Below, one piece after another: positions 6,834-39,160 of a stretch of DNA of 64,000 bases. The stretch lies in NCBI GenBank assembly GCA_020632415.1, contig JACKFO010000002.1:23244-87243 (forward strand), written 5' to 3'. How positions within the stretch are numbered: the stretch's first letter is position 1; each line of letters opens with the position of its first letter. A program made the translations under genes and the position numbers. The notes under the pieces are model-generated. The model was not told where the DNA came from. It was given only the letters and a program-made list of their open reading frames with translations, and ran no database searches. This stretch comes from Candidatus Nomurabacteria bacterium. Lineage in GTDB: Bacteria > Patescibacteriota > Patescibacteriia > UBA1558 > GWA2-36-10.

Positions 6834-8625
6834 TGTAAGAAAGCGCAGCATTGATTCAGTAAAACGTTCAAGTTTGCGAAAACAATCATATGAAGCGCCG
6901 GCAATCAAAAGAAAAACTTCAAGCAAAAGACCAGTGCCTCAAGAATATCGCACTTTCAAAAAAGCGCCCAAAGGCAGAGGCGGCTTGGTTTTTTTCTTGT
7001 TTTTGTTATTTATCGCCGCGATTTCTGGATTTTGGTATTGGAATAACAATGGCTCGACTAATATTACAGATAGTTTAAAACTAGAAATTACTGGACCAGA
7101 AAAAATTGTTTCTGGAGACGAAGTGACTTATCTGGTTGAATACACAAATTTGGATACTGTTGCTTTGACAGCTATGGAGCTTAGTGTTTATTGGCCAGCG
7201 GGATTTTATTTTGATGAGGCTTCTCTTGAGCCAGAAAATGCTAATGCCAAAACTTGGCTCCTTGATGATTTGCCTGCCGGACAAAAAGCTAGCTTGGAAA
7301 TCAAAGGGCAATTGGTTGGTAAAAAAGGTGAAGAACATGATGCAATTTTTAGCTTAGATTATCAGCCAGCAAATTTTCATTCAGATTTTGTAGCTAAGCA
7401 AACAGTAACTACTAAAATTACTGATCAAAAGATTGAGCTTGAAGTTCAAGGACTTGAAAAAACCCTGGTTGATACAGAGCAAGAGATAAAAATAGTTTAT
7501 CGTAATTTGAGTGAAGAAGTTTTGACTGATTTATATTTAGATGTTTTATATCCAGATGATTGGCAGATCGAAAGTGTTGAGCCAGCTAAAGAAGGTCAGT
7601 ACTGGGTCAGTAGCTTAGAGCCAGAAGAAGAAAAAGAAATCGTGCTCAAAGGATATTTTTCCATTGATAGTCGCGCAGATCAGTTGTTAGTGGCTGAAGT
7701 TGGAAATATGTTTGACAATGATTTTCGTCGCTTGATGCGAACTGAGCATCCGATTGTAGTTGTTAATCCACAATTTGATTTAAATTTGACAATCAATGGT
7801 CAAAAGGGTGATCAGCAAGCTAATTGGGGAGATGTTTTGCGTTATCAATTGGAAGTGACCAATGCCAGTGATAGCGATATTGCTGACGTTGAAGTAACTG
7901 CTTTGCTTGCTGGAAAACTTTTGAACTGGGATAGTTTGGATAGTGTCGGACAATATTTAGAAGAACGTATTGTTTGGACCAACGAAGAAGATCAAGGCTT
8001 AGCTTCTTGGTCAGCTGGTGAAAAGAAAATCTTTACTTGGGAAGTAAAGATAGTTTCTAGTCCTCAGCCAGAAAGAAATTTAGAAAATATTATTAAGATT
8101 AATATCGCCGGTCTTAATGACTGGGAGCAATTGGTGACAGTTTCCAAGTTGACAGTGGGCGAAAGTTTGACTTTTAACAATGGAATTTATTGGCATTTGG
8201 GCGGCAGACGTGTTGGTAGTGGTTTGTTGCCACCAAGAGTCGGTGAAGAAACTCAATATTTAGTTGTTTGGTCTTTACCACAATCAACTGGTAATTTTGC
8301 TGATGTAAAAGTAGAAACTGTTTTGCCACCAAATGTTGATTTTGTGGATCAGGCAGAAATTCAAGAAGGAACCTTGTCTTTTGATGAAAGTTCTAGATCA
8401 TTGACTTGGTCTTTGAATGATTTTCAAGACGTTTTGTTACCAGTGACTGCTTCTTTTATGATCTCAATCACTCCAGACAATGAAGACAAAGGACAGACTT
8501 TGACTTTATTAAATCCAGTGACAGTTAGCGCCAGTGGCACTGAAGATGTGGTAGTAAGAAGTAAAATTTTGAAAACTTCAGACGTTGTAGCAGAGAGTTC
8601 TGAGCCAATTGGTATTGTGCAATAA
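6826..8625 (+). CDS. membrane-anchored surface protein with ~110-aa tandem beta-sandwich (DUF11/CARDB-like) repeats
   Basis: Basic cytoplasmic tail, one TM helix, then repeated units (EITGPEKIVSGDEVTYLVEYTN... / ...NLTINGQKGDQQANWGDVLRYQLEVTN...). The track start at 6820 is a TTG; ATG at 6826 (MANVRK) is more likely. Confidence 0.6.
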   Translation: MANVRKRSIDSVKRSSLRKQSYEAPAIKRKTSSKRPVPQEYRTFKKAPKGRGGLVFFLFLLFIAAISGFWYWNNNGSTNITDSLKLEITGPEKIVSGDEVTYLVEYTNLDTVALTAMELSVYWPAGFYFDEASLEPENANAKTWLLDDLPAGQKASLEIKGQLVGKKGEEHDAIFSLDYQPANFHSDFVAKQTVTTKITDQKIELEVQGLEKTLVDTEQEIKIVYRNLSEEVLTDLYLDVLYPDDWQIESVEPAKEGQYWVSSLEPEEEKEIVLKGYFSIDSRADQLLVAEVGNMFDNDFRRLMRTEHPIVVVNPQFDLNLTINGQKGDQQANWGDVLRYQLEVTNASDSDIADVEVTALLAGKLLNWDSLDSVGQYLEERIVWTNEEDQGLASWSAGEKKIFTWEVKIVSSPQPERNLENIIKINIAGLNDWEQLVTVSKLTVGESLTFNNGIYWHLGGRRVGSGLLPPRVGEETQYLVVWSLPQSTGNFADVKVETVLPPNVDFVDQAEIQEGTLSFDESSRSLTWSLNDFQDVLLPVTASFMISITPDNEDKGQTLTLLNPVTVSASGTEDVVVRSKILKTSDVVAESSEPIGIVQ

Positions 8626-9746
8626 TGTTTAAACTAAATAAAACATCAAAAAAATCGCAAGCAAGATTAGGAGTGCTAACCACTGCTCGAGGCAAGGTTA
8701 GTACGCCTTTTTTTATGCCAATCGCTACTAAAGCAGCGATCAAAAGTTTGACTGTTCAGGATGTCCAAGATTTGGGAGCGGAAATAATTTTATCAAACAC
8801 TTATCACAATTATTTAAGGCCCGGTTTGGAAGTGATAAAAAAACACGGTGATCTTCATGATTTTATGGATTGCGATTTACCGATTTTGACTGACAGCGGC
8901 GGTTATCAGGTTTTTAGTTTATCAAAACTTAGAAAGATCAAAGGTGATGATATAGAATTTCAATCACATATTGACGGCAAGACTTATATTTTGAATCCAA
9001 AAAGAGTGATCGACATCCAAAAAGTTTTGGGTTCTGACATTATGATGGTGTTGGATGAATGCGTTGGTCTACCTACTACTCGCGCAGAGGCAGAGATGGC
9101 CCTAGAAAGAACTACCCGTTGGGCCAAGATTGCTTTTGATTATAAACATCGTTTAAATCAAAAATCAGCCAAAATCAAAAAACAATTGATGTTTGGAATT
9201 GTTCAAGGCGCTGATTTCAAAGATTTACGTTTGAGGTCTTTAGAAGAATTGTTGGCTTTGGAGAACAAAACTGCTCATTGGGATGGCTTGGCAGTTGGTG
9301 GCTTGGCAGTTGGTGAGCCGACAAAAGTGATGTACCAGGTGTTAGATGATCTGGTTTTTAAAATGCCAGAAAATCGTCCGCGTTATTTAATGGGCGTTGG
9401 TTATCCAGAAAATATTGTGGAAGCGGTCAAGCGAGGGGTTGATATGTTTGACTGCGTGATCCCAACTCGTGAAGCACGGCACGGCAAATTGTATTTATGG
9501 AAAGGAAAACCAGACCCTACCAAAAAAGATTTTTATCAGACTATTAATATTTCCAATGCAAAATTTGCTAGTGATAAAAAATCAATTAACAATAGCAATC
9601 TCAAAAATTATTCCTTAAGCTATTTACATCATTTATTTAAAACACAAGAGCCTTTGGCTTTGCGACTAGCAACTTTAAATAACCTTAACTTTTATTTAGA
9701 GCTGATGTCCGAGATTAGAAAAGCGATTAAAAGTGGTAAATTATAA
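8625..9746 (+). CDS. tgt: queuine/7-deazaguanine tRNA-ribosyltransferase (TGT fold) lacking the canonical zinc site
   Basis: Catalytic blocks LTDSGGYQVF, DEC, MGVGYPENIVEAVKRGVDMFDC present. The C-terminal CxCxxC...H zinc ligands are replaced (INNSNLKNYSLSYLHHL ... TLNNL). Confidence 0.85.
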   Translation: MFKLNKTSKKSQARLGVLTTARGKVSTPFFMPIATKAAIKSLTVQDVQDLGAEIILSNTYHNYLRPGLEVIKKHGDLHDFMDCDLPILTDSGGYQVFSLSKLRKIKGDDIEFQSHIDGKTYILNPKRVIDIQKVLGSDIMMVLDECVGLPTTRAEAEMALERTTRWAKIAFDYKHRLNQKSAKIKKQLMFGIVQGADFKDLRLRSLEELLALENKTAHWDGLAVGGLAVGEPTKVMYQVLDDLVFKMPENRPRYLMGVGYPENIVEAVKRGVDMFDCVIPTREARHGKLYLWKGKPDPTKKDFYQTINISNAKFASDKKSINNSNLKNYSLSYLHHLFKTQEPLALRLATLNNLNFYLELMSEIRKAIKSGKL

Positions 9747-9748
9747 AG

Positions 9749-9771
9749 CCAGCTAAATAGCTGGTTTTTTT
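9749..9771 (+). terminator. rho-independent terminator (tgt)
   Basis: ccagct-aaat-agctgg hairpin plus T7 run; a second GC hairpin with T-run follows at 9776-9799. Confidence 0.6.
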
Positions 9772-9835
9772 ATCCGCCTCGCCGGCGGGGCTGTTTTTTA
9801 CAAATTTATTTTGTACTGATCATTCAAAAAGTTAA

Positions 9836-9866
9836 AAGCGCTCCGTAGCTCCGGAGCGCTTTTGAG
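9836..9866. terminator. bidirectional hairpin terminator
   Basis: aaagcgctccg-tagc-tccggagcgcttt; A/T runs on both sides. Confidence 0.5.
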
Positions 9867-9880
9867 GGAGAAGCGCTTGG

Positions 9881-10039
9881 TCACTTGCTAGCTTTCTTGG
9901 TAGCAGTCTCTGCGCGAAGCTTCTCAAGTGCGGGCATGATGTACAAAATCATTTCTTCATCGGCTGGTGATACTCGTCTGTTGTTGAATGCATCGACGAC
10001 GATGGTTTCGCCGTTTCTTTCGACAATCTTGCAGCACAT
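9881..10039 (-). CDS. candidate small protein (52 aa), absent from the >=60-aa ORF track
   Basis: ATG preceded by GGAGAAAT SD at ideal spacing; relatively GC-rich; ends just before the bidirectional terminator. Translation: MCCKIVERNGETIVVDAFNNRRVSPADEEMILYIMPALEKLRAETATKKASK. Confidence 0.35.
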   Translation of the reverse strand: MCCKIVERNGETIVVDAFNNRRVSPADEEMILYIMPALEKLRAETATKKASK

Positions 10040-10133
10040 AGTAATTTCTCCTGGATGAACATTCGTTATTAGAAATACTAGGGATTAATTTTTATTTTGT
10101 CAATTGAAGCTAAAAAATGCTATAATAATTTCA

Positions 10134-10505
10134 ATGACAGGAAATATTTTTCTACAAACAATCAAAACTCTCTTCCTAGATTTTCTAGGGGAGATTTTGT
10201 ATTTTCCTTTTTGGTGGTACGGTAGTGGTTTGAAAAAAATTGTTTTATATATCTGGCAAAGTACCAGAAGATTAGCTGGAAATTTGTCTTTGCGCATTAT
10301 GCTCAAAAATCTTTTCCGCCCAATGTACGGTCAGTATGATCGAGCTGGTCGGGCAATTAGTTTTTTTATGCGCATCATTTTATTGTTTAGTCGTTTAGTT
10401 GTTTTTATTGTGCTGAGCATAATGTATCTTTGTATTTTATTAGTCTGGATGATTTTGCCGATTTTGATTCTTTGGCAGTTGCTTAGAAATTTGCATATTT
10501 TATGA
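10134..10505 (+). CDS. hypothetical polytopic membrane protein
   Basis: ATG 7 nt downstream of a perfect TATAAT (10121-10126); 3-4 hydrophobic helices; end overlaps the ClpC-like start. Confidence 0.5.
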   Translation: MTGNIFLQTIKTLFLDFLGEILYFPFWWYGSGLKKIVLYIWQSTRRLAGNLSLRIMLKNLFRPMYGQYDRAGRAISFFMRIILLFSRLVVFIVLSIMYLCILLVWMILPILILWQLLRNLHIL

Positions 10506-13207
10506 AGGCTATCAGATTCAAACAATGTGATCAGTGCCAAGACAAGAGCAAATCCTGTAATGCTTGTTTTGGAATAAAAAACTTTTATTTTTCTAATAAC
10601 AATTTTTTTTATTGGGATAAAAAAATAAATCGCAGCTCAATCTTGGTCAGAGAGTTGAGATTTTTTTTGGACTTGATAATCAATGCAGCTTTGATTGCGG
10701 CGACAATTTTTAGTGTAGTTTTAATTTATCGGATTTTAAATAGCGTTGAGTTTGATCCGAGGAATTTTTTGGATTTTTTGATTAGCCCTAGTCGTAATAA
10801 TTTTACCCTACTGATTTTACTTGTTTTGGACATGTATCTTTTTTATCGACTTTCTTTACCGGCTCAAAAAAGAGATTTGCAAGCCAAGCGACTTAAGGAT
10901 ACTAGTAAATTTACTCGTTATAATTTTGCTGAGAGCTTAAATCAAGAAACGGAAATGATTTTGGACCGAGCTTGGCTTTATGCTTTGCACAAAAAAGTTT
11001 GGCCAGTGACGGTTTGGCATTTACTTTTTGTTTTATTAAATGACAAAGACATTCGAGTTGTTTTAGCTCGCTTGGGAGTTGGTAGTAAAAATTTGCAAGA
11101 AATTATCGATAAGAATTTAGCTAGCTTAGTTGATAAAAATAATAATAATTCTTTAAGCAGAAAAGAAAAATTAGATTTAAGTTTTGAATTAAAAGAAGTT
11201 ATTTTAAACGCCTATTGGCATTCTAGCGTTGTTCGTAAGGATCAATATATCAAAGAGATTGATTTGCTAGCTGGTTTGGTTGCTTTGAGTCAAGATATCA
11301 AAGACTTTTTTTATGATTTTGAAATCGATGATGATAAAATAGACAATGTGATAGCTTGGATTGGTATCAATCTGCGCTTGGCAGAACGCTATCGTCGTTA
11401 TCGTGGTCGCTCGGCTTTTAAGCCAAAAACTGGCATTAATCGTGGCTACACGGCTATTGCCACGCCTCTTTTGGATAGTTTTTCAGCTGATTTAACTCAG
11501 GCCTCGCGCTTTGGTCGTTTGCCACTTTCTGTTGCTAGAGAAGCAGAAATTGCCGAAGTAATGTCAACAATGGAAAGTGATTTGGCTTCAGTAGTTTTGG
11601 TTGGGCCCAATGGAGTTGGTAAAACAAATATTATTGAAGGCATCTCTAATCGAATGATGGCCGAAGAAGTGCCAGCTATTTTTCAAGATAAAAGGTTAGT
11701 TAGTATTTCTTTGCCAATGTTAGTTTCCGGAGCATCAGAATCTGGCCGTTTGGAAGAGAGATTTTTAGGCATTTTAAACGAAGTGGCAATTTCTGGAAAT
11801 ATTATTTTAGCGATTGATAATATTCATAATTTGGTTGGCATCAGCTCAGCAGGACGAGAGGGCGTGGATTTATCAGAAGTTTTGGCTGCTGAAATTAGAA
11901 ACAAAAAAGTTTTGTTAATTGCTTCGACCAATAATCAAGATTATGTAAAATATTTAGAAGGAAGTGAACTTGGTCAAGCTTTGCGTAAAATAAATATCGA
12001 AGAGCCAAATAAAAATCAGGCAATTCAAATCATGGAAGCAAATGTCTCTTGGCTAGAAAATAAATATAAAATTTATTTTACTTACAATGCTCTTGAAAAA
12101 ATTTATCAGCTCACGGATCGTTATTTGCCTGATATGTATTTGCCAACCAAGGCTTTAAATATTATGGAAGAGATTGCCGTCAGAGTTTCTAAGTCAGGAA
12201 GACAGGATATGCTTGTTCGGGCAGAGGATGTAGCAGAATTGATTTCTCATAAAACACAAATTCCATTGACCCAAGTTTCTGATCAGGAATCTGTTAAGTT
12301 ATTAAATTTAGCAGAAGAAATGCATCAAAGAATAGTCGGGCAAGATGAGGCTGTCCAGAAGGTAGCAACTGCTTTACAGCGAGCCAGAGCAGAACTCAGG
12401 GATCAGAGTCGTCCGATTGCTAACTTTTTGTTTTTGGGACCAACTGGTGTTGGTAAAACAGAACTAGCAAAAACTGTGGCTGAGAAATATTTTGGTGCAG
12501 AGGAGAACATGATTCGTTTGGACATGTCTGAATACCAAAACAAAGATAGTTTGGATCGGCTTTTAGGCTCCAATACTCAGAGCACGCCTGGCATTTTGAC
12601 TGAGGCAGTCAGACACAAGCCTTTTGCGTTATTGTTGTTAGATGAGATTGAAAAAGCACACCCAGATATTTTAAATGTTTTTTTACAAGTCATGGAAGAT
12701 GGTCGTTTGACTGACGCTTTGGGCAGAACCGTTGATTTCACCAATGTGATTATGGTTGCTACTTCCAATGCCGGCACAGAGTATATTCAGCAACAAATTG
12801 AAGCTGGTCAAAAGATTGAAGATTTCCAAGAAGATTTAATCAAAACAAAACTACAGGGAATTTTTAGACCAGAATTTTTGAATCGTTTTGACAGTGTAGT
12901 GGTCTTTAGACCGTTAAATGAAAGTGAGATTTTACAAATCGCTGGTTTGATGCTAAATAAAGTTAAAAATAGATTAGAAGCCAAAGGCATTTATTTCGAA
13001 ATTACAGAGTCTGCACAAAAAGAATTAGCTCAACTTGGCTTTGATCCGGTATTTGGCGCTCGTTCTTTAAGAAGAGTGATTCAAGAAAAAGTAGACAATG
13101 CTCTGGCTAAGTTTTTGTTGCAAGGCAAGATTGGTCGACGAGACGTAGTGGTTTATGACCAAGGCGGAGAAATAAGTATCAAAAAAGCAGCTACTTATCA
13201 AAAATAA
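10502..13207 (+). CDS. ClpA/ClpC-like double-AAA+ ATPase with N-terminal Cys4 zinc ribbon and two predicted TM helices
   Basis: CDQCQ...CNAC ribbon; TM segments; Clp_N repeat; Walker A/B x2 (GPNGVGKT/ILAIDNIH; GPTGVGKT/LLLLDEIEKAHPD); sensor and C-terminal domain. Confidence 0.8.
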   Translation: MKAIRFKQCDQCQDKSKSCNACFGIKNFYFSNNNFFYWDKKINRSSILVRELRFFLDLIINAALIAATIFSVVLIYRILNSVEFDPRNFLDFLISPSRNNFTLLILLVLDMYLFYRLSLPAQKRDLQAKRLKDTSKFTRYNFAESLNQETEMILDRAWLYALHKKVWPVTVWHLLFVLLNDKDIRVVLARLGVGSKNLQEIIDKNLASLVDKNNNNSLSRKEKLDLSFELKEVILNAYWHSSVVRKDQYIKEIDLLAGLVALSQDIKDFFYDFEIDDDKIDNVIAWIGINLRLAERYRRYRGRSAFKPKTGINRGYTAIATPLLDSFSADLTQASRFGRLPLSVAREAEIAEVMSTMESDLASVVLVGPNGVGKTNIIEGISNRMMAEEVPAIFQDKRLVSISLPMLVSGASESGRLEERFLGILNEVAISGNIILAIDNIHNLVGISSAGREGVDLSEVLAAEIRNKKVLLIASTNNQDYVKYLEGSELGQALRKINIEEPNKNQAIQIMEANVSWLENKYKIYFTYNALEKIYQLTDRYLPDMYLPTKALNIMEEIAVRVSKSGRQDMLVRAEDVAELISHKTQIPLTQVSDQESVKLLNLAEEMHQRIVGQDEAVQKVATALQRARAELRDQSRPIANFLFLGPTGVGKTELAKTVAEKYFGAEENMIRLDMSEYQNKDSLDRLLGSNTQSTPGILTEAVRHKPFALLLLDEIEKAHPDILNVFLQVMEDGRLTDALGRTVDFTNVIMVATSNAGTEYIQQQIEAGQKIEDFQEDLIKTKLQGIFRPEFLNRFDSVVVFRPLNESEILQIAGLMLNKVKNRLEAKGIYFEITESAQKELAQLGFDPVFGARSLRRVIQEKVDNALAKFLLQGKIGRRDVVVYDQGGEISIKKAATYQK

Positions 13208-13221
13208 TCAAAAAAACTTAA

Positions 13222-13243
13222 GGAAAACCCTTAGGTTTTTTGT
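13222..13243 (+). terminator. AT-rich rho-independent terminator (ClpC-like)
   Basis: aaaccc-tta-gggttt-type hairpin plus T-run. Confidence 0.45.
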
Positions 13244-13307
13244 ATTTTTAGCAAAATTAAGTTATAATAAATTTACTATTGACAAAATTGTCATCTCGTG
13301 GTAATTT
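13238..13307 (+). promoter_or_regulatory. tandem sigma70-like promoters with operator-like dyads upstream of the high-GC island
   Basis: TTGTAT-N17-TATAAT (13238-13268) and TTGACA-N17-TAATTT (13279-13307). Palindrome TGACAAAATTGTCA overlaps the second -35; dyad CTCGTG-N8-CACGAG at 13295-13313. Confidence 0.4.
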
Positions 13308-13398
13308 CACGAGAACTTGTCAAAAGTCCGTTCTTTGACATCAGAGTTCAAAATCAAATTGAATACAACTGGGAAACCAAGAGAGGGAGAGAAATCTC

Positions 13399-14772
13399 AT
13401 GAAGAAGCTCAGTTCGCTCTGCATCGCCTTGCTGGCGATCGTTTTTGCTCTGCGTCCGGCTTCGGCCGAAACCTTCACCGTTCCGGACGATGGGACGATT
13501 CAGGATGGTGTGGATGTCACCGGCAGCGGTGATGATATCTACATCAGTCCGGGCGTGTATACCGAAACGGTGTACTTTGATGCGGACACCGTCAGCATCC
13601 ACGGCTTGGAGGCCGACCTGACCACCATCCGCAACGGCACTTTCGTCTTCAACGGCGGATCCACAATGGAAACCGTGCTTCATGATCTCGGCTTCGATGG
13701 TCCCGATGGCGCGGCGATCAGCCTTTTCAATGGCTCTGGCGTGACGGTTCAGAACGTGTTGATACGTGACAAAGAGGGAACGGCCGCGATTTTCGTGGGC
13801 AGCAATTCACATCTCGTCCTCAGCACGGTCTGGGCCTGGAACAATTCCAACGGTGCTCTGCAGGGCTATGCCACGGCCAGTAGCAATTTCGGTCAAATCG
13901 AGATCTACAACGCTCGTTTCGAAGGTAACGCCTTAAACGGTATTCCGACGATGATTCCGCAGATCGAGAATGGCCTTCTGACCTATCGACCCTACCAAAG
14001 CGATGATCGCAACCAGAACTTTGGTGGCGGCATCTACTTGCCTCTGGGCGGCGGTCGAGTCTCGATCTGGCGCAGTCTCTTGGCCAACAATGACGTGAAT
14101 TTCTTGGGCGGCGCTATCAGTGGCGGCAACGATGCCAACATTGATTCAACGATCGTCGATCTGGATCTCTGCACCATTTTCGGCAACGATGCTGGGCAGA
14201 ATGGATCGTTTTTCTATGGTCGCAATGGGAAAATTCGACTGAACATTTCCAATAGCCTGTTCGTCGACAACGGCATCAACGCCTTCGTCGGCAATGTCAG
14301 CTTCGAGGGGCACAACGTGGCCTGGCCGAACAACTACGACATTCCTGGCCTGATCGTCGAGGATCCTCTTTTCTGCGATCCGGATGGTCGCAATTTTCAG
14401 CTCGGCTACAGCTCCTTCTGCCTCCCCGAAAACAACCAGTGGGGGGAGCAGATCGGCGCCTTCGGCGCCGGTGAATGCGATGGAGTCGGTGTCGAGGCGA
14501 TCCAACAGCCGATCAACTTCGGCCTGACAGCCCATCCCAATCCTTTCAATCCCACGACCACCATCAACTTCAATCTGCAGTCGGCCAACCACGTCTCGCT
14601 GATCATCTACGACCTGGAAGGTCGGCTGGTGGCCAATCTGCTCGATGGCATGCTCGGTTCTGGACAGCACAGCGTCAACTTCGACGCCAGCAAGCTGTCC
14701 AGCGGCAGTTACTTCGTCTACATGACCACCAACGACCAGCAGCAGGTGATGAAGTTGCTGCTGCTCAAGTAG
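13399..14772 (+). CDS. secreted beta-helix-like protein with T9SS (Por) C-terminal sorting domain
   Basis: Signal peptide (LLAIVFALRPASA); Gly/Asn-rich parallel beta-helix-like repeats; C-terminus ...PNPFNPTTTINFNL...IYDLEGRLV...SGSYFVYM...KLLLLK typical of the T9SS CTD; SD GGGAGAG. Confidence 0.7.
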   Translation: MKKLSSLCIALLAIVFALRPASAETFTVPDDGTIQDGVDVTGSGDDIYISPGVYTETVYFDADTVSIHGLEADLTTIRNGTFVFNGGSTMETVLHDLGFDGPDGAAISLFNGSGVTVQNVLIRDKEGTAAIFVGSNSHLVLSTVWAWNNSNGALQGYATASSNFGQIEIYNARFEGNALNGIPTMIPQIENGLLTYRPYQSDDRNQNFGGGIYLPLGGGRVSIWRSLLANNDVNFLGGAISGGNDANIDSTIVDLDLCTIFGNDAGQNGSFFYGRNGKIRLNISNSLFVDNGINAFVGNVSFEGHNVAWPNNYDIPGLIVEDPLFCDPDGRNFQLGYSSFCLPENNQWGEQIGAFGAGECDGVGVEAIQQPINFGLTAHPNPFNPTTTINFNLQSANHVSLIIYDLEGRLVANLLDGMLGSGQHSVNFDASKLSSGSYFVYMTTNDQQQVMKLLLLK

Positions 14773-14827
14773 ATCTCAATCACCCGAAGGGCGGGTGTTG
14801 ACTTTATCTCTATGGAAAGGAGTGAGC

Positions 14828-15340
14828 ATGAGGAAACTCATTGTTCCGCTGCTGGCAGTGTTCTTGCTGCTGGCAGGCTGCGACTGCGTTCAGGCTCGCG
14901 GACCGACCACCGTCGATGAGAGTACGGGTCTGGTCTGCGACAACATGGGCAACTCCTGCGACATCATGATCAGCGGCCTCGGCTACGACGAACTCGCCTG
15001 GGAGGTCGAGTTCTCCGGCGTGGACATCAGCGACAACTCCTTCGTGGCGTCCGATTCCAGTCGGGACCTGCTGATCCTGGCGGTTGACAGCGGCGTCAAC
15101 GAAGGCTGTTTCGAGATCAGCTTCTATCCGGTGCTGATGAATTCGACGATCACCGGCGAGGCCTTCTCGAGCGACAAGATGGACACGGCGACGGCATTCC
15201 TGGCCAACATCGGCGAGGGCATCAACGGCGAAAACGGAGGCCGGCAAGTCCTCAAGTGTCTGATCGACAGCCAGTTCGTCAACGGCTACATGATCTGCCG
15301 CACCGACAACCGCGACGGGACGATCAAGTCCGCCGCCTGA
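14828..15340 (+). CDS. lipoprotein (lipobox LLAGC), unknown function
   Basis: Signal peptide plus lipobox; SD GGAAAGGAG; high GC. The track start at 14795 is a likely upstream extension. Confidence 0.55.
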   Translation: MRKLIVPLLAVFLLLAGCDCVQARGPTTVDESTGLVCDNMGNSCDIMISGLGYDELAWEVEFSGVDISDNSFVASDSSRDLLILAVDSGVNEGCFEISFYPVLMNSTITGEAFSSDKMDTATAFLANIGEGINGENGGRQVLKCLIDSQFVNGYMICRTDNRDGTIKSAA

Positions 15341-15395
15341 CCCAGGCTGTGTGCTAGAGGCGTCTAGTGCACAGCCAGAACTCTGAATTCCGCAC

Positions 15396-15436
15396 CCCCG
15401 CATCCGAGCTTGACTTGGATGCGGGGTTCTTTTTTT
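15396..15436 (+). terminator. GC-rich rho-independent terminator closing the high-GC island
   Basis: ccccgcatcc-(11-nt loop)-ggatgcgggg followed by TTCTTTTTTT; an additional hairpin at 15346-15378. Confidence 0.7.
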
Positions 15437-32025: not shown

Positions 32026-32433
32026 ATGAATTTTATTAGCCCACATCAGATATCAGAGACAGAAGATTGTCCCTTGTTGGTGATCAGTGATTCGGATTGG
32101 CGATTTCGTAAAGCTGATCAAGAGTTCGTAGAGCACGATTTGGCTTATACTGAATTTGATTTTTACTCTTGGCCAAATACCATTAAGGGAATTTTACGTC
32201 AAAATGGTTTTAAAAAAGAATTAGTAGAGAAAATTGTTTCTGTTGCCAGGGGTTTGCACAATATCAAAAAGATACTTTTGTTAAGTCATCATTTAGAAGA
32301 AAGCGAAGATTTTGTAAAAAATTTATTAGCCGCTAGAGATATTTTGGCAAAAGAATTGCCAGATAATTTAGAAATAATCTTGGCTTATTCTAAAAATTCT
32401 CCTCAAGGACTTGAATATAAAATAGTTGAATAA
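32026..32433 (+). CDS. hypothetical protein
   Basis: 135 aa, no recognised domain; followed by a terminator at 32441-32465. Confidence 0.45.
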   Translation: MNFISPHQISETEDCPLLVISDSDWRFRKADQEFVEHDLAYTEFDFYSWPNTIKGILRQNGFKKELVEKIVSVARGLHNIKKILLLSHHLEESEDFVKNLLAARDILAKELPDNLEIILAYSKNSPQGLEYKIVE

Positions 32434-32549
32434 ATATGCTAGCCGCCTTTTAGGCGGTTTTTGTTTTATTAAAAAATATGTTATAATTATGTTTTAGGTA
32501 AGCTAAAATTTATTTATTTGACATATATTTACATTAAGTTATTAGCTTT

Positions 32550-35500
32550 ATGTTTAAAAATCAAGAAAAAAAGAAAAAAAAGCTTAAGGAGCCTGTTTTT
32601 TTGTTATTTAAATTAAAAAAAAGTTTGATCTTTGGTTTAATTTTAGGTTTAATTTTTCAGACCTTTAGCCTTAATGCTCCTCAAGTACAAGCTGCCACTT
32701 TATTAAGCGATGATTTTACGGGTACAACTATTGATACCGCTAAGTGGGTAGAATATGATGCGGCAGGTAGCGGTGGAGAGGCTGGTAATATTCAGCAAAA
32801 TGATTCTTTATCAGTTACTAGTAGTAATAATGGAACCACAGCTCTTGTGTCAGTGGATAGTTTTTCTGCGGATGGTTTAGAAATTTCTTCTGTGATTACT
32901 ACAAGTAATGGTAAGTTCATTTTGGGATACGGAGATCGTGAGTGGTCATTGGCAGGACATAGAGGATATTTACTTTATAATTCTGGTTCTAATATTCTGG
33001 GTTTAGCTTGGAATAATAATGTATTAAAGCAAAATGTTGCTTGTGGCACGATGACCAGTGGAGCCAACTATAAAATGAAAATTATTCCTACTGGTTTTGA
33101 GGTCTATAAAAATGATGCTTTGCAATGTACCGTTACCCCACTTACTGCTGATTTGGTAGATGGTTATTCAATATTTTTAGAATCAAATGATGCGATTTCT
33201 TATTTTGATGATCTTTTAGTCGTTGGTACTGTCAGTGAGGAAGCAACTGTGCCGGCCGCTCCTACTATTGGTACGGCTATAGCTGGTGATACAGAAGCAA
33301 GTATAAGTTTTACTCCGGGATCAAATGGTGGTTCAGCAATTACGGGTTATACTGTGACTTCAAATCCAGGAGCCATTACAGCAACAGGTTCTGCTTCGCC
33401 GATTACAGTCACTGGTCTCACTAATGATACAGAATATACTTTTACAGTGACTGCTACTAACGCCATTGGCACTTCTGATCCTTCGGCTGCTTCTAATGCT
33501 GTGACGCCACACGTAACAGATATTTTTGACGAAGCAGCTTTGTGGCTCAAAGCAGATGCAATTACTGGCTTAAATGATGGCGATGCAGTTACTACTTGGG
33601 GAGATAGCTCTGTCTATGCTTTGGACGCAACACAATCAACAGTAGATTATAAACCAACTTATAAAACAAATATCATAAATTCTCAGCCGATAGTTAGATT
33701 TGACGGTATCAATGATTTATTGCTTACTCCTTCTACAGCCGCCGCTGCTGGTATCACGGTTTTTACGGTTGTGAAAAGTACAGATACGAGTTCTGGCTAT
33801 TTTGCTGCTTTTGGTGGTAATAATAATGCAATTATTACGGGTTTTAGTAATGCTTTATGGGAATATTATAGCAGCCCGAGAACTACTTTGGGCAATATAT
33901 CTACTTCTGAATTTCAAATTATCACCTCAAGAGTGGGCTCGAGTTTGACGAATCCAATTAGTTTGGGTGCAGATGCTGGTAGAGTCGCTCCTTGGGCAGG
34001 AGATGTGGCAGAATTTCTTGTATTCAAATCAGTTTTGTCAGATACTGACTATAATACCGTGTATGATTATTTAAATAATAAATATTTTTCAGCCGTCGAT
34101 CCAGTTGAGCCAGATGCGCCAAGCGAATTAGTAGCTACGCCAGCTAGTGAACAAATGTTGCTTTCTTGGACAGCACCGGCAAGTGATGGCGGAGCAACAA
34201 TTACAGATTATGTTGTAGAATACAAATTAAGTTCTGAGCCTACTACTTGGACTACTTTTGATGATGGTGTTTCTACTGAAACTACTGCTACGGTCACGGG
34301 GCTAACTAATAATTTGAGTTATGATTTTAGAGTGTCGGCAACTAATTCAGTAGGCACAGGTGCTGTTTCAGATACAGCAACGGAAACGCCAGCGCTCAGC
34401 GTACCCTCAGCACCTATTAGTTTGTCAGCTAGTGGTGGTAATAGTGATGCTACTCTTTCTTGGACAGCTCCCGCAAGCGATGGTGGAGCAGCGATTACAG
34501 ATTATGTTGTAGAATATAAACTAAGTTCTGAGCCTACTACTTGGACTACTTTTGACGATGGTGTTTCTACTGAAACTACTGCGACGGTTACGGGGCTAAC
34601 TAATAATTTGAGTTATGATTTTAGAGTGTCGGCAACTAATTCAGTAGGCACAGGTGCTGTTTCAGATACAGCTACTGCCACAGTAGAGTATGTTTTGTTA
34701 ATAGATGATTTTACTGGCACAACTATTGATTCTAGCAAATGGCTGGAGATCGATACTGCTGGCGACGGTGGTGATACTGGCAATGTCCAACAAAATGATT
34801 CTTTGTCGGTTGCTAACAGTGAATCTGGTAGCGACGAAGGGCTTAATGCTTTAGTTTCAGTAGATAGTTTTGATGATAACGATTTAGAGATTTCTGCCAA
34901 ACTGACCGCCGGAGGCCTGACCTTATTTGGCTATGGTGATCGTCAGTGGAATTTGGCTGGCAATAAAGCATATATAATTTATTTAAGTGGCGGCACCTTA
35001 ATGGGCTTGACTTGGCATGACGCTTCTTACGCCAATTCTAATACAAGCTGCGGTACTTATTCCGCTGGGGCAACTTATAAAATGACGATTATTTCCACTG
35101 GCTTTGAAGTTTATAAAAATGATGTGTTGCAGTGCACGGTTAGTCCGGGAGACGGTAATTTGGTAAATAATAAGCCAATATTTTTAGAGTCCAATGGCGC
35201 TACTGCTAGTACTTTTGATGATGTTTATGTAACTGGTACTTATACTGAGCCGACCGCACCAGAGGCTCCGACTATTGGTACTGCTACAGCGGACAATGCG
35301 CAAGCAACTATAACGTTTACCCCTGGTTCATCAGGAGGTTCTCCGATCACCAGCTACACTGTCAGCTCAGATCCAGGTGGCATTACTGCTACTGGTAGCT
35401 CTTCGCCTATTACAGTGACTGGGCTAACTAATGACACTGAATATACTTTTACAGTAACTGCTACTAATGCTATTGGTACCTCTGATCCGTCAGCGGCCTC

Positions 35501-38500
35501 AAATGCGGTTACTCCTACTGTGCCAACCGTTCCTGATCAAGTAACTGACTTGATAGCTTATGGGTATAATCAGCAGGCCTTACTTAGTTGGACTGCTCCA
35601 GACAATGGTGGCGCACCTATTTCAGACTATATAGTAGAGTACAAACCTTCATCAGGAAGCGAGTGGGGAATTTTTGATGATGGTACATCTGCAACTCTTA
35701 AAGCGATCGTTACTGGTTTGGAAAACGATATTCAATATGATTTGAGAGTTTCAGCAGTCAATAGTGGTGGCGCTGGTCTGGCTTCTGATCTTGCCACTGC
35801 CACTCCTAGGGCTTTAACAGAATTGGTAGTTGTCATTAACGGTGAAAGTAATTCTGGTGGACAAGCTCATAATAGCGAGGCAACAGAAGAAGAGCTGTCT
35901 CCTACAGAAGAAGTGCAAATATTAAATAATACATCTTTTGTTTTTGAAGATTTAGACATTGGAACTAATAATAATATTGATCATTGTTGTTGGTTGAATT
36001 CAGCGACACAACATGGTTTAGAATTAGAATTAGCTAGTTCCACAAAGGCTAATAATTTTCCAGATAATCCTCAAATTCATTTGATCAAAACTGGCCAAGG
36101 TGGTTCACGTCTTGCTCAGTGGAATGTTGGCGGTACATATTGGACTAAATTTTTAGAAAGAGTAAATGCCGCTAAAACACAATTATCCGCCAATCCCCAA
36201 TGGATAACGTGGATTAGTATAGGTATTAATGACTATTTGGCCGGGACAACGGTTTCGACTTTTAAGACAGAGTTGATTGCTCATATTAATAAAATAAAAG
36301 ATGAATTACCCGGAACCATAGTCATCTTAACTCAATTTCAAGCAATGAGCGCTAACTCTGGGTACCCAACATATAATGTGGTCATGGACGAAATAGCGGC
36401 TTCTGAAAATAATGTTTTTGTTGTCGATTCTACAGGAGCTGCTTTAGACGATGGTAATCATTGGAGTTATTCTGGGCTAAAAGTCGTTGCCGATAGAATG
36501 GTTACGATCACAAACACCCAACTAGGCCTGATCTACCCGGGAGTACCTACTGACCTTAGTGTGAATCCTGGCGCTACTTCTGCCGATCTAACATGGACTG
36601 CTCCAATAGCAAATGGTGGAGAAACTATCACAGATTATCTTATTGAATACAAAACTTCAGCAGAAAGTTCTTGGACTACTTTTTCTGATGGCACTTCTAC
36701 TGACACCACTGCCACTGTCACTGGTTTAGAAGATAGTACAGATTATAATTTTAGGGTTTCAACAGTAAATAGTAATGGAGCAGGAAATCCTTCTTTAACA
36801 GATGCTACTACTACCGATGGCACAGCCCCAGTAAACTCTAGTGTCACTGCTACTCCGACAGATAATTCAGCTACTATCACTTGGACTACAGATGAAGCAG
36901 GATCAAGTATTGTAGATCATGGATTAAATTCTAGTTATGGATCTTCTACTTCAGAGACTGATACTTCTCCTAGAGTCACAGATCATAGTGTCACTCTTTC
37001 CAATCTTCTCTCTTGTACCACTTACCATTACAGAGTCAGATCAAAAGATCTTGCTCAAAACCAAGGTACTTCTTCAGACTCTACTTTCATGACCACAGGA
37101 TGTACTGGAGATGCAGAAGTAGAACAGACTACCAATGACTCTGTTGCCACTTCTACTGGTGCTACAATTAATTTAAATTCAGGCACAGCCAATCTTACTT
37201 TAGATATTCCAGCAGGTTTTGATGAAGATGCTGCAAGTGATGTCGAATTCCAAGTCAATCAATTAACGACTAATACTTTGCTTTTAACTACAGGTAGCCC
37301 TAGTAGCAGAAGCGTTATTGGTTCGCATACTTATGACCTTTCAGCTTTTAGTGACGCTAACACAGCCTTAACTAATTTTGATCAAGCATTAACTCTCACC
37401 TTTACTTATCTAGATAGTGAAGTAGAGGGAATGGATGAATCAAGTCTAGTCATTTACTACTGGGATGGTGATTCTTGGGAAACACTAGATAACTGTTCAG
37501 TTAACACTACAGCCAACACTGTCTCTTGCACCACTACTCACTTTACAACCTTTGCTTTATTTGGGTCAGCTGCCGCAGAAGAATCAGCTGAAGAAGATGT
37601 ATCTGCTGGAGGCGGAGGAATGGCTATAATCCCTTCTCAAGGAGAAGGACAAGCAGACATTCATATTGGCATGCACCAAACAAAGGCAGGAGTAATCTTA
37701 GATAGTCAAAGCATTAATCTTTTAATGTACATTAATTCAGAGTTAGACTTTCAATTAAAAAATACAAACTTTAACAAAAAATTAATCATCAAAGATCTAA
37801 ACATGTTAAGCTCTGAAGCAGAAATAGAGCTTGCTAACCAAATACTAAAATTAAAGCCAGGACAGTCAGCGCTACTAGATCTTAACCACAACCAAATAGA
37901 TGATCTTAAATTAACTTTTAACACTTTACTTAACAATCGTTTAGATTTAACCTTAACATTCTTAACCTCTAGTGATCTCATTAATTTTGCCAATTATAAT
38001 CTTTTAGTTAAAAGATCAGACGATCCAGCAGTTTATTTGATTGAAAGTGGTCAAAAAAGACTTATTCCAAGCGAAAGTGTTTTCTTAAGTTATGGCTTTC
38101 AATGGTCGGATATTGAAATAGATGATGATCTAGAGCAGTATCCTACAGGAGAGGTACTTACTTATCCAGAACATAACTTTCCAGACGGAACTTTAGTTAA
38201 AGAAAAAAACAAACCACAAGTCTATTTATTGGAAGATCATCAAAAAAGATATATTACTAGCGAACAAATCTTCTTAAGCCATAACTTCAAATGGTCAGAT
38301 ATTATTGAAGTAGATACTCTAAGTTCTTATCCTATTGGGCAAGACCTCAGTATTAAGCAACAAAATAATCTCAATATTACTAGAAGTTTAAACTTAGGTA
38401 TGACCGGAGAAGATGTCAGACAATTACAAACATTACTTGCTCAAGACAAAACAGTGTACCCAGAAGGCAAAATAACCGGATACTTTGGACCTCTTACCGA

Positions 38501-38609
38501 ACAAGCTATTCAAAGATTCCAGCTTAAATACCAGATAGTTAACTCAGCGCAAGAGCAGGGCTATGGAGTGTTTGGACCAAAGACTAGAGCTAAAATTAAT
38601 TCCTTATAA
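32550..38609 (+). CDS. giant (2019 aa) multidomain cell-surface protein: 2x LamG-like, several FN3 repeats, SGNH/SASA-type esterase-like domain, C-terminal PG_binding_1 domain
   Basis: N-terminal signal/anchor; two LamG-like modules (LLSDDFTGTTIDTAKW... / LLIDDFTGTTIDSSKW...); FN3 repeats (SWTAP...YDFRVSATN); SGNH blocks GESNSGG / GINDY / DDGNHW (nt ~35826-36510); C-terminal PG-binding repeat (nt ~38391-38606). Confidence 0.8.
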   Translation: MFKNQEKKKKKLKEPVFLLFKLKKSLIFGLILGLIFQTFSLNAPQVQAATLLSDDFTGTTIDTAKWVEYDAAGSGGEAGNIQQNDSLSVTSSNNGTTALVSVDSFSADGLEISSVITTSNGKFILGYGDREWSLAGHRGYLLYNSGSNILGLAWNNNVLKQNVACGTMTSGANYKMKIIPTGFEVYKNDALQCTVTPLTADLVDGYSIFLESNDAISYFDDLLVVGTVSEEATVPAAPTIGTAIAGDTEASISFTPGSNGGSAITGYTVTSNPGAITATGSASPITVTGLTNDTEYTFTVTATNAIGTSDPSAASNAVTPHVTDIFDEAALWLKADAITGLNDGDAVTTWGDSSVYALDATQSTVDYKPTYKTNIINSQPIVRFDGINDLLLTPSTAAAAGITVFTVVKSTDTSSGYFAAFGGNNNAIITGFSNALWEYYSSPRTTLGNISTSEFQIITSRVGSSLTNPISLGADAGRVAPWAGDVAEFLVFKSVLSDTDYNTVYDYLNNKYFSAVDPVEPDAPSELVATPASEQMLLSWTAPASDGGATITDYVVEYKLSSEPTTWTTFDDGVSTETTATVTGLTNNLSYDFRVSATNSVGTGAVSDTATETPALSVPSAPISLSASGGNSDATLSWTAPASDGGAAITDYVVEYKLSSEPTTWTTFDDGVSTETTATVTGLTNNLSYDFRVSATNSVGTGAVSDTATATVEYVLLIDDFTGTTIDSSKWLEIDTAGDGGDTGNVQQNDSLSVANSESGSDEGLNALVSVDSFDDNDLEISAKLTAGGLTLFGYGDRQWNLAGNKAYIIYLSGGTLMGLTWHDASYANSNTSCGTYSAGATYKMTIISTGFEVYKNDVLQCTVSPGDGNLVNNKPIFLESNGATASTFDDVYVTGTYTEPTAPEAPTIGTATADNAQATITFTPGSSGGSPITSYTVSSDPGGITATGSSSPITVTGLTNDTEYTFTVTATNAIGTSDPSAASNAVTPTVPTVPDQVTDLIAYGYNQQALLSWTAPDNGGAPISDYIVEYKPSSGSEWGIFDDGTSATLKAIVTGLENDIQYDLRVSAVNSGGAGLASDLATATPRALTELVVVINGESNSGGQAHNSEATEEELSPTEEVQILNNTSFVFEDLDIGTNNNIDHCCWLNSATQHGLELELASSTKANNFPDNPQIHLIKTGQGGSRLAQWNVGGTYWTKFLERVNAAKTQLSANPQWITWISIGINDYLAGTTVSTFKTELIAHINKIKDELPGTIVILTQFQAMSANSGYPTYNVVMDEIAASENNVFVVDSTGAALDDGNHWSYSGLKVVADRMVTITNTQLGLIYPGVPTDLSVNPGATSADLTWTAPIANGGETITDYLIEYKTSAESSWTTFSDGTSTDTTATVTGLEDSTDYNFRVSTVNSNGAGNPSLTDATTTDGTAPVNSSVTATPTDNSATITWTTDEAGSSIVDHGLNSSYGSSTSETDTSPRVTDHSVTLSNLLSCTTYHYRVRSKDLAQNQGTSSDSTFMTTGCTGDAEVEQTTNDSVATSTGATINLNSGTANLTLDIPAGFDEDAASDVEFQVNQLTTNTLLLTTGSPSSRSVIGSHTYDLSAFSDANTALTNFDQALTLTFTYLDSEVEGMDESSLVIYYWDGDSWETLDNCSVNTTANTVSCTTTHFTTFALFGSAAAEESAEEDVSAGGGGMAIIPSQGEGQADIHIGMHQTKAGVILDSQSINLLMYINSELDFQLKNTNFNKKLIIKDLNMLSSEAEIELANQILKLKPGQSALLDLNHNQIDDLKLTFNTLLNNRLDLTLTFLTSSDLINFANYNLLVKRSDDPAVYLIESGQKRLIPSESVFLSYGFQWSDIEIDDDLEQYPTGEVLTYPEHNFPDGTLVKEKNKPQVYLLEDHQKRYITSEQIFLSHNFKWSDIIEVDTLSSYPIGQDLSIKQQNNLNITRSLNLGMTGEDVRQLQTLLAQDKTVYPEGKITGYFGPLTEQAIQRFQLKYQIVNSAQEQGYGVFGPKTRAKINSL
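32697..33510 (+). repeat. LamG-like+FN3 module, copy 1 of an intragenic duplication
   Basis: Co-linear protein similarity to the copy at 34695-35535 (same LamG-like order; FN3 ending ...TEYTFTVTATNAIGTSDPSAASNAVTP in both); DNA diverged. Confidence 0.7.
34164..34690 (+). repeat. two tandem ~294-bp FN3-encoding repeats, near-identical at DNA level
   Basis: 34199-34388 vs 34493-34682 differ at only a handful of positions (mostly synonymous wobble changes). Confidence 0.8.
34695..35535 (+). repeat. LamG-like+FN3 module, copy 2
   Basis: See copy 1. Confidence 0.7.
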
Positions 38610-38620
38610 GAATAATAAAA

Positions 38621-38647
38621 AATAGTCTCTTGAAGAGATTATTTTTT
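38621..38647 (+). terminator. rho-independent terminator of the giant gene
   Basis: tctctt-ga-agaga hairpin extended by flanking AT pairs, then a T6 run. Confidence 0.55.
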
Positions 38648-38762
38648 ATTTGCATAAAAGAAACAATTTTCTTAATTTATGTTAAGCGAACTAGACAAAT
38701 TTTTGTTTTTAGCTTAGGCTTAAATTAAGAAAAAGAACCTTGTTTAATTTGGAGTCAGAGCA

Positions 38763-38906
38763 ATGCAACGGAAACCGAAGAAGCCTACGTCCCTGATTCA
38801 ACAGGAGATTATTGAAAGACGTTGGATTCAGGTAGTGCCAGGATTTCCTGACAAGTACGGTAGAAGGAGTAGAAAGAGGAGTCAGTCTAAGAAGCGGGAG
38901 GGCTAA
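38763..38906 (+). CDS. tiny basic protein (47 aa), first gene of a three-gene micro-island
   Basis: GGAG SD 8 nt upstream; stop TAA 2 nt before the next ATG; MQRKPKKPTSLIQQEIIERRWIQVVPGFPDKYGRRSRKRSQSKKREG. Confidence 0.35.
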   Translation: MQRKPKKPTSLIQQEIIERRWIQVVPGFPDKYGRRSRKRSQSKKREG

Positions 38907-38908
38907 TC

Positions 38909-39160
38909 ATGTTTTGGAAAATCATGTTAGTATTGGCAGCGTTGTTATTTGTCCTTTTTTGCCTTAAAGCCTTGAAAGGATTCATTTCACGTATGTGCCA
39001 TACCGAAGGCTGTCCTCGTTGTAATGGTCTTTGCTATGCTGAGCGTCGAGATGATCTTTATGTAGAATGCGACAATTGTCATGCCATCTATCATCCTGTT
39101 ACCGGGACATTACACCCAAGCGAGGCTAACAACAATTCGGTTTCTCAGGCAACCATTTAG
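38909..39160 (+). CDS. small membrane-anchored Cys-rich (zinc-ribbon-like) protein
   Basis: SD GGGAGGG; N-terminal TM helix; C-x4-C-x2-C-x3-C...C-x2-C-H cluster. Confidence 0.45.
   Translation: MFWKIMLVLAALLFVLFCLKALKGFISRMCHTEGCPRCNGLCYAERRDDLYVECDNCHAIYHPVTGTLHPSEANNNSVSQATI

Follow-up and report, generated by a model that had tools for sequence, protein, structure and literature searches.

Here we describe a giant gene from Candidatus Nomurabacteria, a lineage of the Patescibacteria, that specifies a predicted surface protein with a putative self-cleaving tether. The gene lies in a 64,000-nucleotide (nt) stretch of contig JACKFO010000002.1, which was analyzed as a whole and is called the window; all positions refer to it unless another locus is named. 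Specifically, an uninterrupted open reading frame (ORF) runs from an ATG at position 32550 to 38609 on the + strand, exactly as read in an earlier note made from the sequence alone, and it encodes 2019 amino acids (aa) with a predicted mass of about 210 kDa. The G+C content is 39% in the giant gene versus 36.5% over the whole window. Because a 6-kb frame stays open in DNA of 36–39% G+C, chance origin is ruled out. Pfam matches, the translation, and structural models together place a Sec-type export signal, lectin-like modules, an esterase, and a wall-binding C-terminus in this one protein. The explanation we favor, and consider probable, is that the gene encodes an exported, wall-anchored lectin/esterase with a self-cleaving MAIN (Microbial Autoproteolysis INducing) tether and a releasable ectodomain. 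The gene and the parts of its product are as follows.

32550..38609, + strand: giant-protein ORF; ATG start, 2019 aa, uninterrupted
32550..32693, + strand: signal peptide, aa 1–48; Lys-rich n-region, hydrophobic core SLIFGLILGLIFQTF, then VQA/AT; read from the translation
32694..33245, + strand: module A1, aa 49–232; beta-jelly roll with a ConA-like fold, from a small family that lacks annotation; probably a lectin or carbohydrate-binding module (CBM)
33246..33521, + strand: fibronectin type III (FN3) domain no. 1, aa 233–324; Pfam fn3 and internal similarity
33522..34100, + strand: second jelly roll, aa 325–517; Laminin_G_3-like, sub-threshold Pfam match
34101..34685, + strand: tandem FN3 nos. 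2 and 3, aa 518–712; recent 294-nt duplication
34686..35249, + strand: module A2, aa 713–900; paralog of A1
35250..35813, + strand: FN3 nos. 4 and 5, aa 901–1088; Pfam fn3
35814..36515, + strand: SASA/CE6-type SGNH O-acetylesterase, aa 1089–1322; Pfam SASA and family profile
36516..37103, + strand: FN3 nos. 6 and 7, aa 1323–1518; Pfam; no. 7 is of the Pur_ac_phosph_N (PAP_N) type
37104..37565, + strand: GAIN_B/ZU5-like "MAIN" domain (domain X), aa 1519–1672; AlphaFold (AF2) model and Foldseek
37539..37547, + strand: His1664-Phe1665-Thr1666, predicted autoproteolysis site with the cut at F1665/T1666; model and motif
37566..37646, + strand: short linker rich in A, E, and G, aa 1673–1699; read from the translation
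37647..37994, + strand: conserved domain of ~115 aa, aa 1700–1815; homology, no Pfam match
37995..38384, + strand: two R repeats of ~60 aa, aa 1816–1945; internal similarity, candidate wall-binding repeats
38385..38609, + strand: PG_binding_1 domain, aa 1946–2019, and stop codon; Pfam

Jelly-Roll Modules and Fibronectin Domains

The N-terminal half of the protein is an array of binding-type and spacer-type domains. Seven stretches match fn3 (PF00041, E 2.8e-76) in the Pfam scan. The earlier note had recognized two internal duplications, and both are real. One is a module-plus-FN3 unit (aa 51–328 versus 716–997, 52–87% identity). The other is the tandem FN3 pair (aa 521–613 versus 619–711, 85–98% aa identity), whose DNA is 95% identical over 221 nt (34161–34381 versus 34455–34675); thus, this duplication is recent. 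Upstream of the array, the ortholog in locus L001 has AHS/ATLLSDDF at the position equivalent to VQA/AT of the signal peptide.

The modules named A1 and A2 are 50–63% identical to each other, and A2 scores 9.8e-77 against the family profile. An exhaustive HMMER search recovered 76 representatives of this family among 1.84 billion, nearly all in very large proteins and often right behind the signal peptide. The scan of the giant protein assigned A1 and A2 to no Pfam family, LamG included, and none of 22 family members scanned singly yielded a LamG, Laminin_G_3, GH16, or CBM match at E<=1. Single-sequence searches of the PDB with module A, the esterase, and domain X likewise gave nothing significant. 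The AF2 model of module A is confident (predicted local distance difference test, pLDDT, 94.2; predicted template modeling score, pTM, 0.89). It has 226 matches in the PDB at E<=1e-3, with GH16 enzymes and CBM66 at the top. The best is the GH16 lichenase/beta-glucanase 3d6e (TMq 0.72, E 8e-8). Module A is therefore, by its model, a ConA-like jelly roll that shares the lectin/glucanase fold of GH16 hydrolases and CBM66, and the term "LamG-like" used by the earlier note is correct at the level of the superfold only.

Module A differs from GH16 in its lack of the catalytic ExDxxE strand. Specifically, the family consensus at the strand that carries E-x-D-x(x)-E in GH16 is L-x-I-S-A, its signature is GYGD, and no Glu is found among the invariant or >=90% conserved columns. 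GH16 activity was rejected on this ground, and since no Glu is conserved, module A is probably a binding module of the lectin/CBM type rather than an enzyme. A profile search of the PDB also matched designed Kelch proteins; these matches were rejected as spurious, since each adds up six repeats that score below threshold. For the second jelly roll (aa 325–517), which the earlier note had called Laminin_G_3-like, Laminin_G_3 (PF13385) is the sole family to appear, at 16.7 bits versus a cutoff of 27.6, and it recurs in four of five orthologous segments at E 0.007–0.09, again below the gathering score.

A SASA/CE6-Type Esterase

Embedded among the FN3 domains, where the earlier note had placed an esterase (nt ~35826–36510), the isolated segment matches Pfam SASA (PF03629) at aa 1093–1317 (E 3.7e-13, 50 bits versus a cutoff of 24.8, profile positions 4–220 of 226). 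The motif blocks are GESNSGG (aa 1098–1104), KTGQGGS (block II, 1180–1186), GINDY (1225–1229), and DDGNHW (1300–1305). Judged from alignments, Ser1100 is the predicted nucleophile, Gly1184 and Asn1227 would form the oxyanion hole, and Asp1301 and His1304 would complete the catalytic triad. The family profile matches PDB entries 2apj (E 1.2e-9) and 1zmb (E 2.9e-7), and blocks I–V align with GQSN, SGGT, GESD, and D..H of these solved SASA/CE6-type structures. The earlier note had named this alignment in advance as the test of its esterase assignment; GESNSGG, GINDY, and DDGNHW are all present and fall on the catalytic positions of both structures.

The domain belongs to a distinct subfamily of mostly stand-alone proteins of ~250 aa, whereas here it is embedded in 2019 aa. 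A search with aa 1085–1325 found 169 homologs with no more than 58% identity, the majority of them stand-alone SASA proteins of 240–340 aa. In a 26-sequence alignment, G-E-S-N-x-G-G (with Ser1100), T-G-x-G-x-S (block II), G-x-N-D (with Asn1227), and His1304 are invariant; Asp1301, three residues before His1304, is present here and variable in the subfamily. The GxSN, G, GxND, and DxxH blocks are shared with the SASA/CE6-type proteins At4g34215 of Arabidopsis (2apj) and 1zmb of C. acetobutylicum, but block I of the giant protein reads GESN rather than GQSN.

A likeness to Ape-type peptidoglycan O-acetylesterases, suggested by the earlier note, was not borne out. The profile search over all PDB chains retrieved no Ape-type enzyme at E<=1; the other matches within that limit were the 159-aa acetyltransferase chains 6wn9 and 6vjp (E 0.03–0.05) and sialate esterase/lysophospholipase L1 (E 0.3). 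Structures of Ape1 are in the PDB. Given this result, "SASA/CE6-like" is the accurate label for the domain.

The closest relatives of the esterase are attached to surfaces by another route. Specifically, the four closest homologs (P0001–P0004) have dockerin-like tails, with PF00404 recorded for three. The closest stand-alone homolog, P0001 (58% identical), has a dockerin-like repeat at its end, and a 224-aa cohesin-domain gene comes directly after it (L008, 1431–3043), so that this locus is a minimal cohesin–dockerin pair around the same esterase type. Cellulosomal and dockerin-tethered carbohydrate esterases resemble the giant protein in being tethered at a surface, but its own link consists of a covalent stalk of many domains that includes a MAIN domain and a peptidoglycan-binding anchor. 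The substrate class is most likely acetylated polysaccharide, either environmental or on another cell.

The earlier note viewed the protein as the giant adhesin of an epibiont, whose esterase de-O-acetylates surface glycans or peptidoglycan of a host for attachment or feeding. In its favor, the organism is a Patescibacterium, from a phylum that recent papers infer to be largely episymbiotic, and lectin-like modules lie beside the esterase on a long FN3 stalk. The idea is also compatible with the MAIN architecture presented below, but it draws no specific support from the data, and we judge it unlikely. No Ape-type esterase was retrieved, and the nearest solved relatives are CE6/SASA enzymes; the nearest esterase homologs are dockerin-bearing or free small esterases; and the gene neighborhood is housekeeping and not syntenic in relatives. 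Neither the sequence nor the neighborhood contains a pointer to a host target, the data identify no host for Nomurabacteria, and we found no paper tying O-acetylesterases to epibiosis in the candidate phyla radiation (CPR).

A MAIN/GAIN-Like Domain Between Ectodomain and Anchor

The domain order in the earlier note lacked a domain of ~155 aa, here called domain X (aa 1519–1672). It lies between FN3 no. 7 and the linker and ends in C..C.T-H-F-T-TFALFG (YYWDGDSWETLDNCSVNTTANTVSCTTTHFTTFALFG). The tail W..L...VD...NTVTA.VSHF(T/S)TFA(I/L) is strongly conserved among its homologs, and HF[TS] occurs in 28 of 50 homologous sequences. An AlphaFold model from a 26-sequence alignment has pLDDT 81 and pTM 0.73. 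In a Foldseek search with this model, the PDB yielded only three matches at E<=1e-3, all of them GAIN domains (BAI3, 4dlo; BAI2, 8oek; E 1.2e-4 to 4.3e-4), followed by the ankyrin ZU5, NLRP1 FIIND, and latrophilin GAIN domains. Pfam points weakly in the same direction: within the domain X family, GPS matches 6 of 26 members (best E 0.0053) and ZU5 matches one of 26 (E 0.0014), all below the gathering score.

In the model, H1664 (residue 146) ends the strand 139–146, F1665 and T1666 (147–148) form the turn, and residues 149–156 make up the last strand. HFT thus sits, in the model, at the self-cutting position of GAIN domains. The GAIN HxS/T and the ZU5/FIIND HFS/SFS autoproteolytic motifs lie in a beta-turn in the same way, and SF/S is the cut site in the FIIND domains of NLRP1 and CARD8, according to one report (PMC3210808). 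The paired cysteines C1645 and C1659 before the motif recall the GPS motif C..C.HLT.FAVL. The best structural matches, namely the adhesion G-protein-coupled receptor (GPCR) GAIN domains (BAI3 4dlo, BAI2 8oek, latrophilin 4dlq) and the ZU5/FIIND domains (ankyrin 3ud2, NLRP1 7crw), are only 11–14% identical to domain X in sequence. Unlike these proteins, the giant protein has no helical GAIN_A subdomain and no seven-transmembrane or death-fold partner.

A microbial precedent exists. The MAIN domain, found in bacteria and archaea, combines a GAIN_B-like fold with an HX(S/T) motif that is conserved (Brogan & Rudner, bioRxiv 10.64898/2026.05.12.724683, May 2026). Its prototype, YfkN of Bacillus subtilis, is cut between F and S of HFS by a mechanism in which His acts as base and an N–O acyl shift follows; an S-to-A change abolishes the cut, and the fragments remain associated until released by SDS (sodium dodecyl sulfate) or heat (bioRxiv 10.64898/2026.05.12.724683). 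Nearly all bacterial MAIN domains that were tested cleaved, and nearly all of the ~15,000 MAIN proteins have the order signal peptide, adhesion or enzyme domains, MAIN, surface anchor (bioRxiv 10.64898/2026.05.12.724683). In the co-occurrence table of that survey, SASA appears once and PG_binding_1 three times; its text mentions neither Patescibacteria nor esterases, and the survey was based on RefSeq Select (bioRxiv 10.64898/2026.05.12.724683), which is probably why genomes known only from metagenomes are absent from it.

The giant protein has the same N-to-C order, the GAIN_B-like beta-sandwich, and the H-hydrophobic-S/T motif in the last turn, and its large size and its FN3, lectin, and hydrolase cargo are typical of MAIN proteins. 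By predicted fold, motif, and domain order, it fits the MAIN class described in 2026. It differs from the surveyed proteins in that it comes from Patescibacteria, carries a SASA esterase as cargo, and has a predicted non-covalent anchor, made up of PG_binding_1 and a 60-aa repeat that is new, in place of SLH or a sortase signal. With a MAIN domain between ectodomain and anchor, the protein more likely works through an ectodomain that is self-cleaved and can be released than as a fixed adhesin.

Short homologs of domain X also exist in another setting. Those numbered P0138–P0150 and one in locus L005 all have HFT, mostly as ...SHFTTFAIMG, and lie beside CARDB domains. One such CARDB-adjacent locus is from an uncultured archaeon, in agreement with the reported archaeal distribution of MAIN.

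The Predicted C-Terminal Anchor Region

The protein ends, as the earlier note had proposed, in a PG_binding_1 domain (PF01471) with a significant Pfam match, the second test that the note had set for its reading, at aa 1952–2019 (E 4.7e-12, 46.3 bits versus a cutoff of 23, profile positions 1–55 of 57). Between this domain and domain X, the earlier note had read a helical low-complexity linker. A short stretch rich in A, E, and G is present (aa ~1673–1699), but most of the region is a conserved segment, aa 1700–1815. This segment has no Pfam match, is 52% identical over 108 aa in the L001 ortholog, and is also found in P0210 and P0219, and conservation in these three proteins marks it as a domain rather than a helix of low complexity.

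The R repeats correspond to the two VY.IE.GQKR repeats of the earlier note, with a length of ~60 aa instead of the ~55 aa given there. They are 54% identical to each other (aa 1819–1868 versus 1882–1931, E 1.7e-14) and have the consensus DGTLvK...p.VYLIEnGkKR.IpS..vF.s.gfkWsdI....s..l..YP.G. Searches of Pfam and the PDB gave no match to them, only a weak hint of EccB (E 0.027). The repeats recur in other secreted proteins, with six copies beside SpoIID (P0121), one beside a subtilase (P0135), and an array of seven in a Patescibacteria protein of locus L003 (5288–8665); in PHROG, they overlap weakly with C-terminal profiles of phage endolysins. We regard them as a plausible candidate for a new wall-binding repeat family.

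Because PG_binding_1 and R repeats occur in peptidoglycan-active enzymes, for example with SpoIID (P0121) and in endolysins, the protein could instead act on its own wall, with the esterase removing O-acetyl groups from peptidoglycan or wall glycopolymers as a housekeeping accessory to autolysins. JGI names one relative [quoted passage not shown] but this name reflects the PG-binding domain only. The esterase is of the SASA/CE6 type and not Ape, and a lectin/FN3 stalk of ~1500 aa puts the enzyme far from the anchor, which makes little sense for a self-wall enzyme. Own-wall remodeling is, in our assessment, very unlikely.

Relatives of the Giant Protein

The architecture recurs in uncultured bacteria; few of the carriers have a taxon label, and those that do are Patescibacteria. 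Module A, FN3, and SASA are combined in at least 13 representatives, others have divergent SASA or GDSL domains, and many relatives end in a PAP_N-type FN3, domain X, and PG_binding_1. The closest is a collinear ortholog of 2027 aa in a metagenome-assembled genome (MAG) of an uncultured bacterium (L001). The only named family members are called "hypothetical" or "fibronectin type III domain-containing," and one of them is from Candidatus Magasanikbacteria. The exact giant protein was not found in the protein collection searched, and NCBIfam has no specific model for it. Short Logan contigs, assembled from short reads of the same organism, use the same start codon but break 114 nt into the giant gene. 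In the window itself, no paralog of any of its modules was found elsewhere.

The relative in L002 lacks the R repeats and PG_binding_1 and has NFS in place of HFT. It lies at 7986–14241 of that locus, in a MAG labeled "Gammaproteobacteria" with 44% G+C, and is divided into two ORFs of 395 and 1589 aa. The division may reflect a frameshift, or the contig may be mis-binned.

Proposed Mechanism

As to the kind of protein, the sequence supports what the earlier note described, that is, a secreted, wall-binding, very large multidomain protein with an apparently intact SASA/SGNH catalytic domain. The domain inventory, the SGNH motifs, the predicted GAIN/ZU5-like fold, and the recurrence of the architecture were obtained directly, and from them we infer cleavage, anchoring, substrate, and release. 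Specifically, Sec would export the giant protein to the cell surface, and the C-terminal R repeats and PG_binding_1 would bind the cell's own peptidoglycan non-covalently. The MAIN domain would cut itself at F1665/T1666, with His1664 as the base and a subsequent N–O acyl shift, as in YfkN. Cleavage would yield a 169-kDa ectodomain (aa 49–1665) and a 40-kDa anchored stub (aa 1666–2019) that remain joined through their common beta-sandwich. On the ectodomain, the three jelly-roll modules would bind glycan, the FN3 domains would act as spacers, and the SASA/CE6-type esterase (Ser1100, His1304, Asp1301) would strip O-acetyl groups from the bound glycan. Finally, a pulling force on the bound ectodomain would free it from the cell.

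Several points count against this proposal. The esterases of solved structure that come closest are only distant relatives (E 1e-9), and the signal peptide was recognized by eye in the translation. Wall binding by the R repeats, although plausible, is argued by guilt by association. The TM-scores of domain X to GAIN/ZU5 structures are moderate (0.37–0.59), and the GPS match of the giant protein's own domain X is not significant (E 0.085); autoproteolysis is a step we infer from the modeled fold and the motif. Many relatives that carry the esterase have another residue in place of the His (NFS, SFS, AFS, QFS) while F-S/T is kept, and cleavage is thus no conserved requirement of the family, although SF/S is itself the cut site in the FIIND domains named above. 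In addition, some GAIN domains with an HxS/T motif are described as cleavage-resistant in another report (PMC13062082).

The replacement of the −2 His in many close architectural relatives (NFS, SFS, AFS, QFS, GFS), the existence of cleavage-resistant GAIN domains, and the sub-threshold Pfam GPS score all favor a different role for domain X, that of a non-cleaving, structural beta-sandwich spacer. The enzyme would then be covalently continuous with the anchor and act at the cell surface only. However, the giant protein and its closest ortholog retain the canonical H-F-T/S, HFT lies exactly in the last beta-turn of the GAIN-like fold, and cleavage was the rule among the bacterial MAIN domains tested (bioRxiv 10.64898/2026.05.12.724683). 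We consider the spacer possible but doubtful, and the self-cleaving tether remains our preferred explanation.

The releasable ectodomain invites a bolder notion, one we hold to be quite improbable. In a host-dependent, ultra-small cell, the MAIN-tethered ectodomain could be a break-away attachment and receptor-destroying device: the lectins would grip O-acetylated glycan on the partner cell, the esterase would deacetylate it, and tension would detach the cell and leave the enzyme on the target. Such a device would parallel the esterases of influenza C HEF and some phage tailspikes. If this notion is true, Patescibacteria would use force-gated tethers of the GAIN type in their cycle of attaching and detaching.

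The giant gene alone reveals no new mechanism. If the steps proposed above hold, it extends the MAIN autoproteolytic tether to Patescibacteria, a phylum unmentioned in the survey that founded the class. Both its cargo, a SASA esterase combined with a lectin-like module that lacks annotation, and its anchor type, PG_binding_1 combined with a likewise unannotated repeat of 60 aa, would be additions, since that survey found them rarely or not at all. Two domain families without Pfam models, module A with its 76 representatives and the R repeat, are defined here, and the giant protein is a predicted surface protein of organisms that are otherwise hard to study.

Transcription and Genomic Neighborhood

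The giant gene looks like its own transcription unit. Three putative signals lie around it.

32441–32459 plus T-run, + strand: upstream terminator-like hairpin and T-run; from a scan, consensus match only
~32479–32486, + strand: TATAAT-like box gttataat; read directly from the sequence, consensus match only
38624..38652, + strand: AT-rich hairpin with a T-run behind it, probably a terminator; direct reading, not picked up by the GC-biased scan

The flanks consist of housekeeping genes. Specifically, four ATP synthase genes (alpha, gamma, beta, and epsilon) lie there together with those for a 135-aa protein, an AddA-like helicase-nuclease, and PheST. Proteins encoded nearby are identical to NCBI entries assigned to a Candidatus Nomurabacteria bacterium, on a contig of 842 kb. 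A comparison of the flanking genes with the loci of relatives found none in common and no synteny, and the giant gene thus has no conserved partner gene. Neither of the two small flanking ORFs, at 32026–32433 (135 aa) and 38909–39160 (83 aa), matches Pfam or PHROG, and neither is conserved beside relatives of the giant gene.

These flanks also bear on the notion that the protein is a prophage-derived tail fiber or lysin-like protein. Its PHROG matches do include minor and major tail proteins and endolysins, but they cover FN3 domains and PG_binding_1 only, with none on module A or domain X, and the only overlap with SASA concerns its last ~20 residues, through a match centered on FN3 no. 6. 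Prophage origin was rejected on the limited extent of these matches, the flanking ATP synthase, AddA-like helicase-nuclease, and PheST genes, and the N-terminal signal peptide, and we assign it next to no probability.

The intergenic region 3′ of the giant gene (38760–38900) is richer in G+C than its surroundings and is directly followed by the 83-aa ORF. Rfam gave no match in the window and nothing significant in this region, and a tRNA search of the window found none. Elsewhere in the window, positions 13399–15400 form an island of 51% G+C in a genome of 33–38%. A 457-aa protein encoded there combines a right-handed beta-helix with a C-terminal type IX secretion system (T9SS) sorting domain (Por_Secre_tail, E 6e-11), a domain typical of Bacteroidota. 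Overlapping ORFs occupy both strands from 14.1 to 15.4 kb within the island, whose composition and content suggest horizontally acquired DNA or a chimeric assembly.

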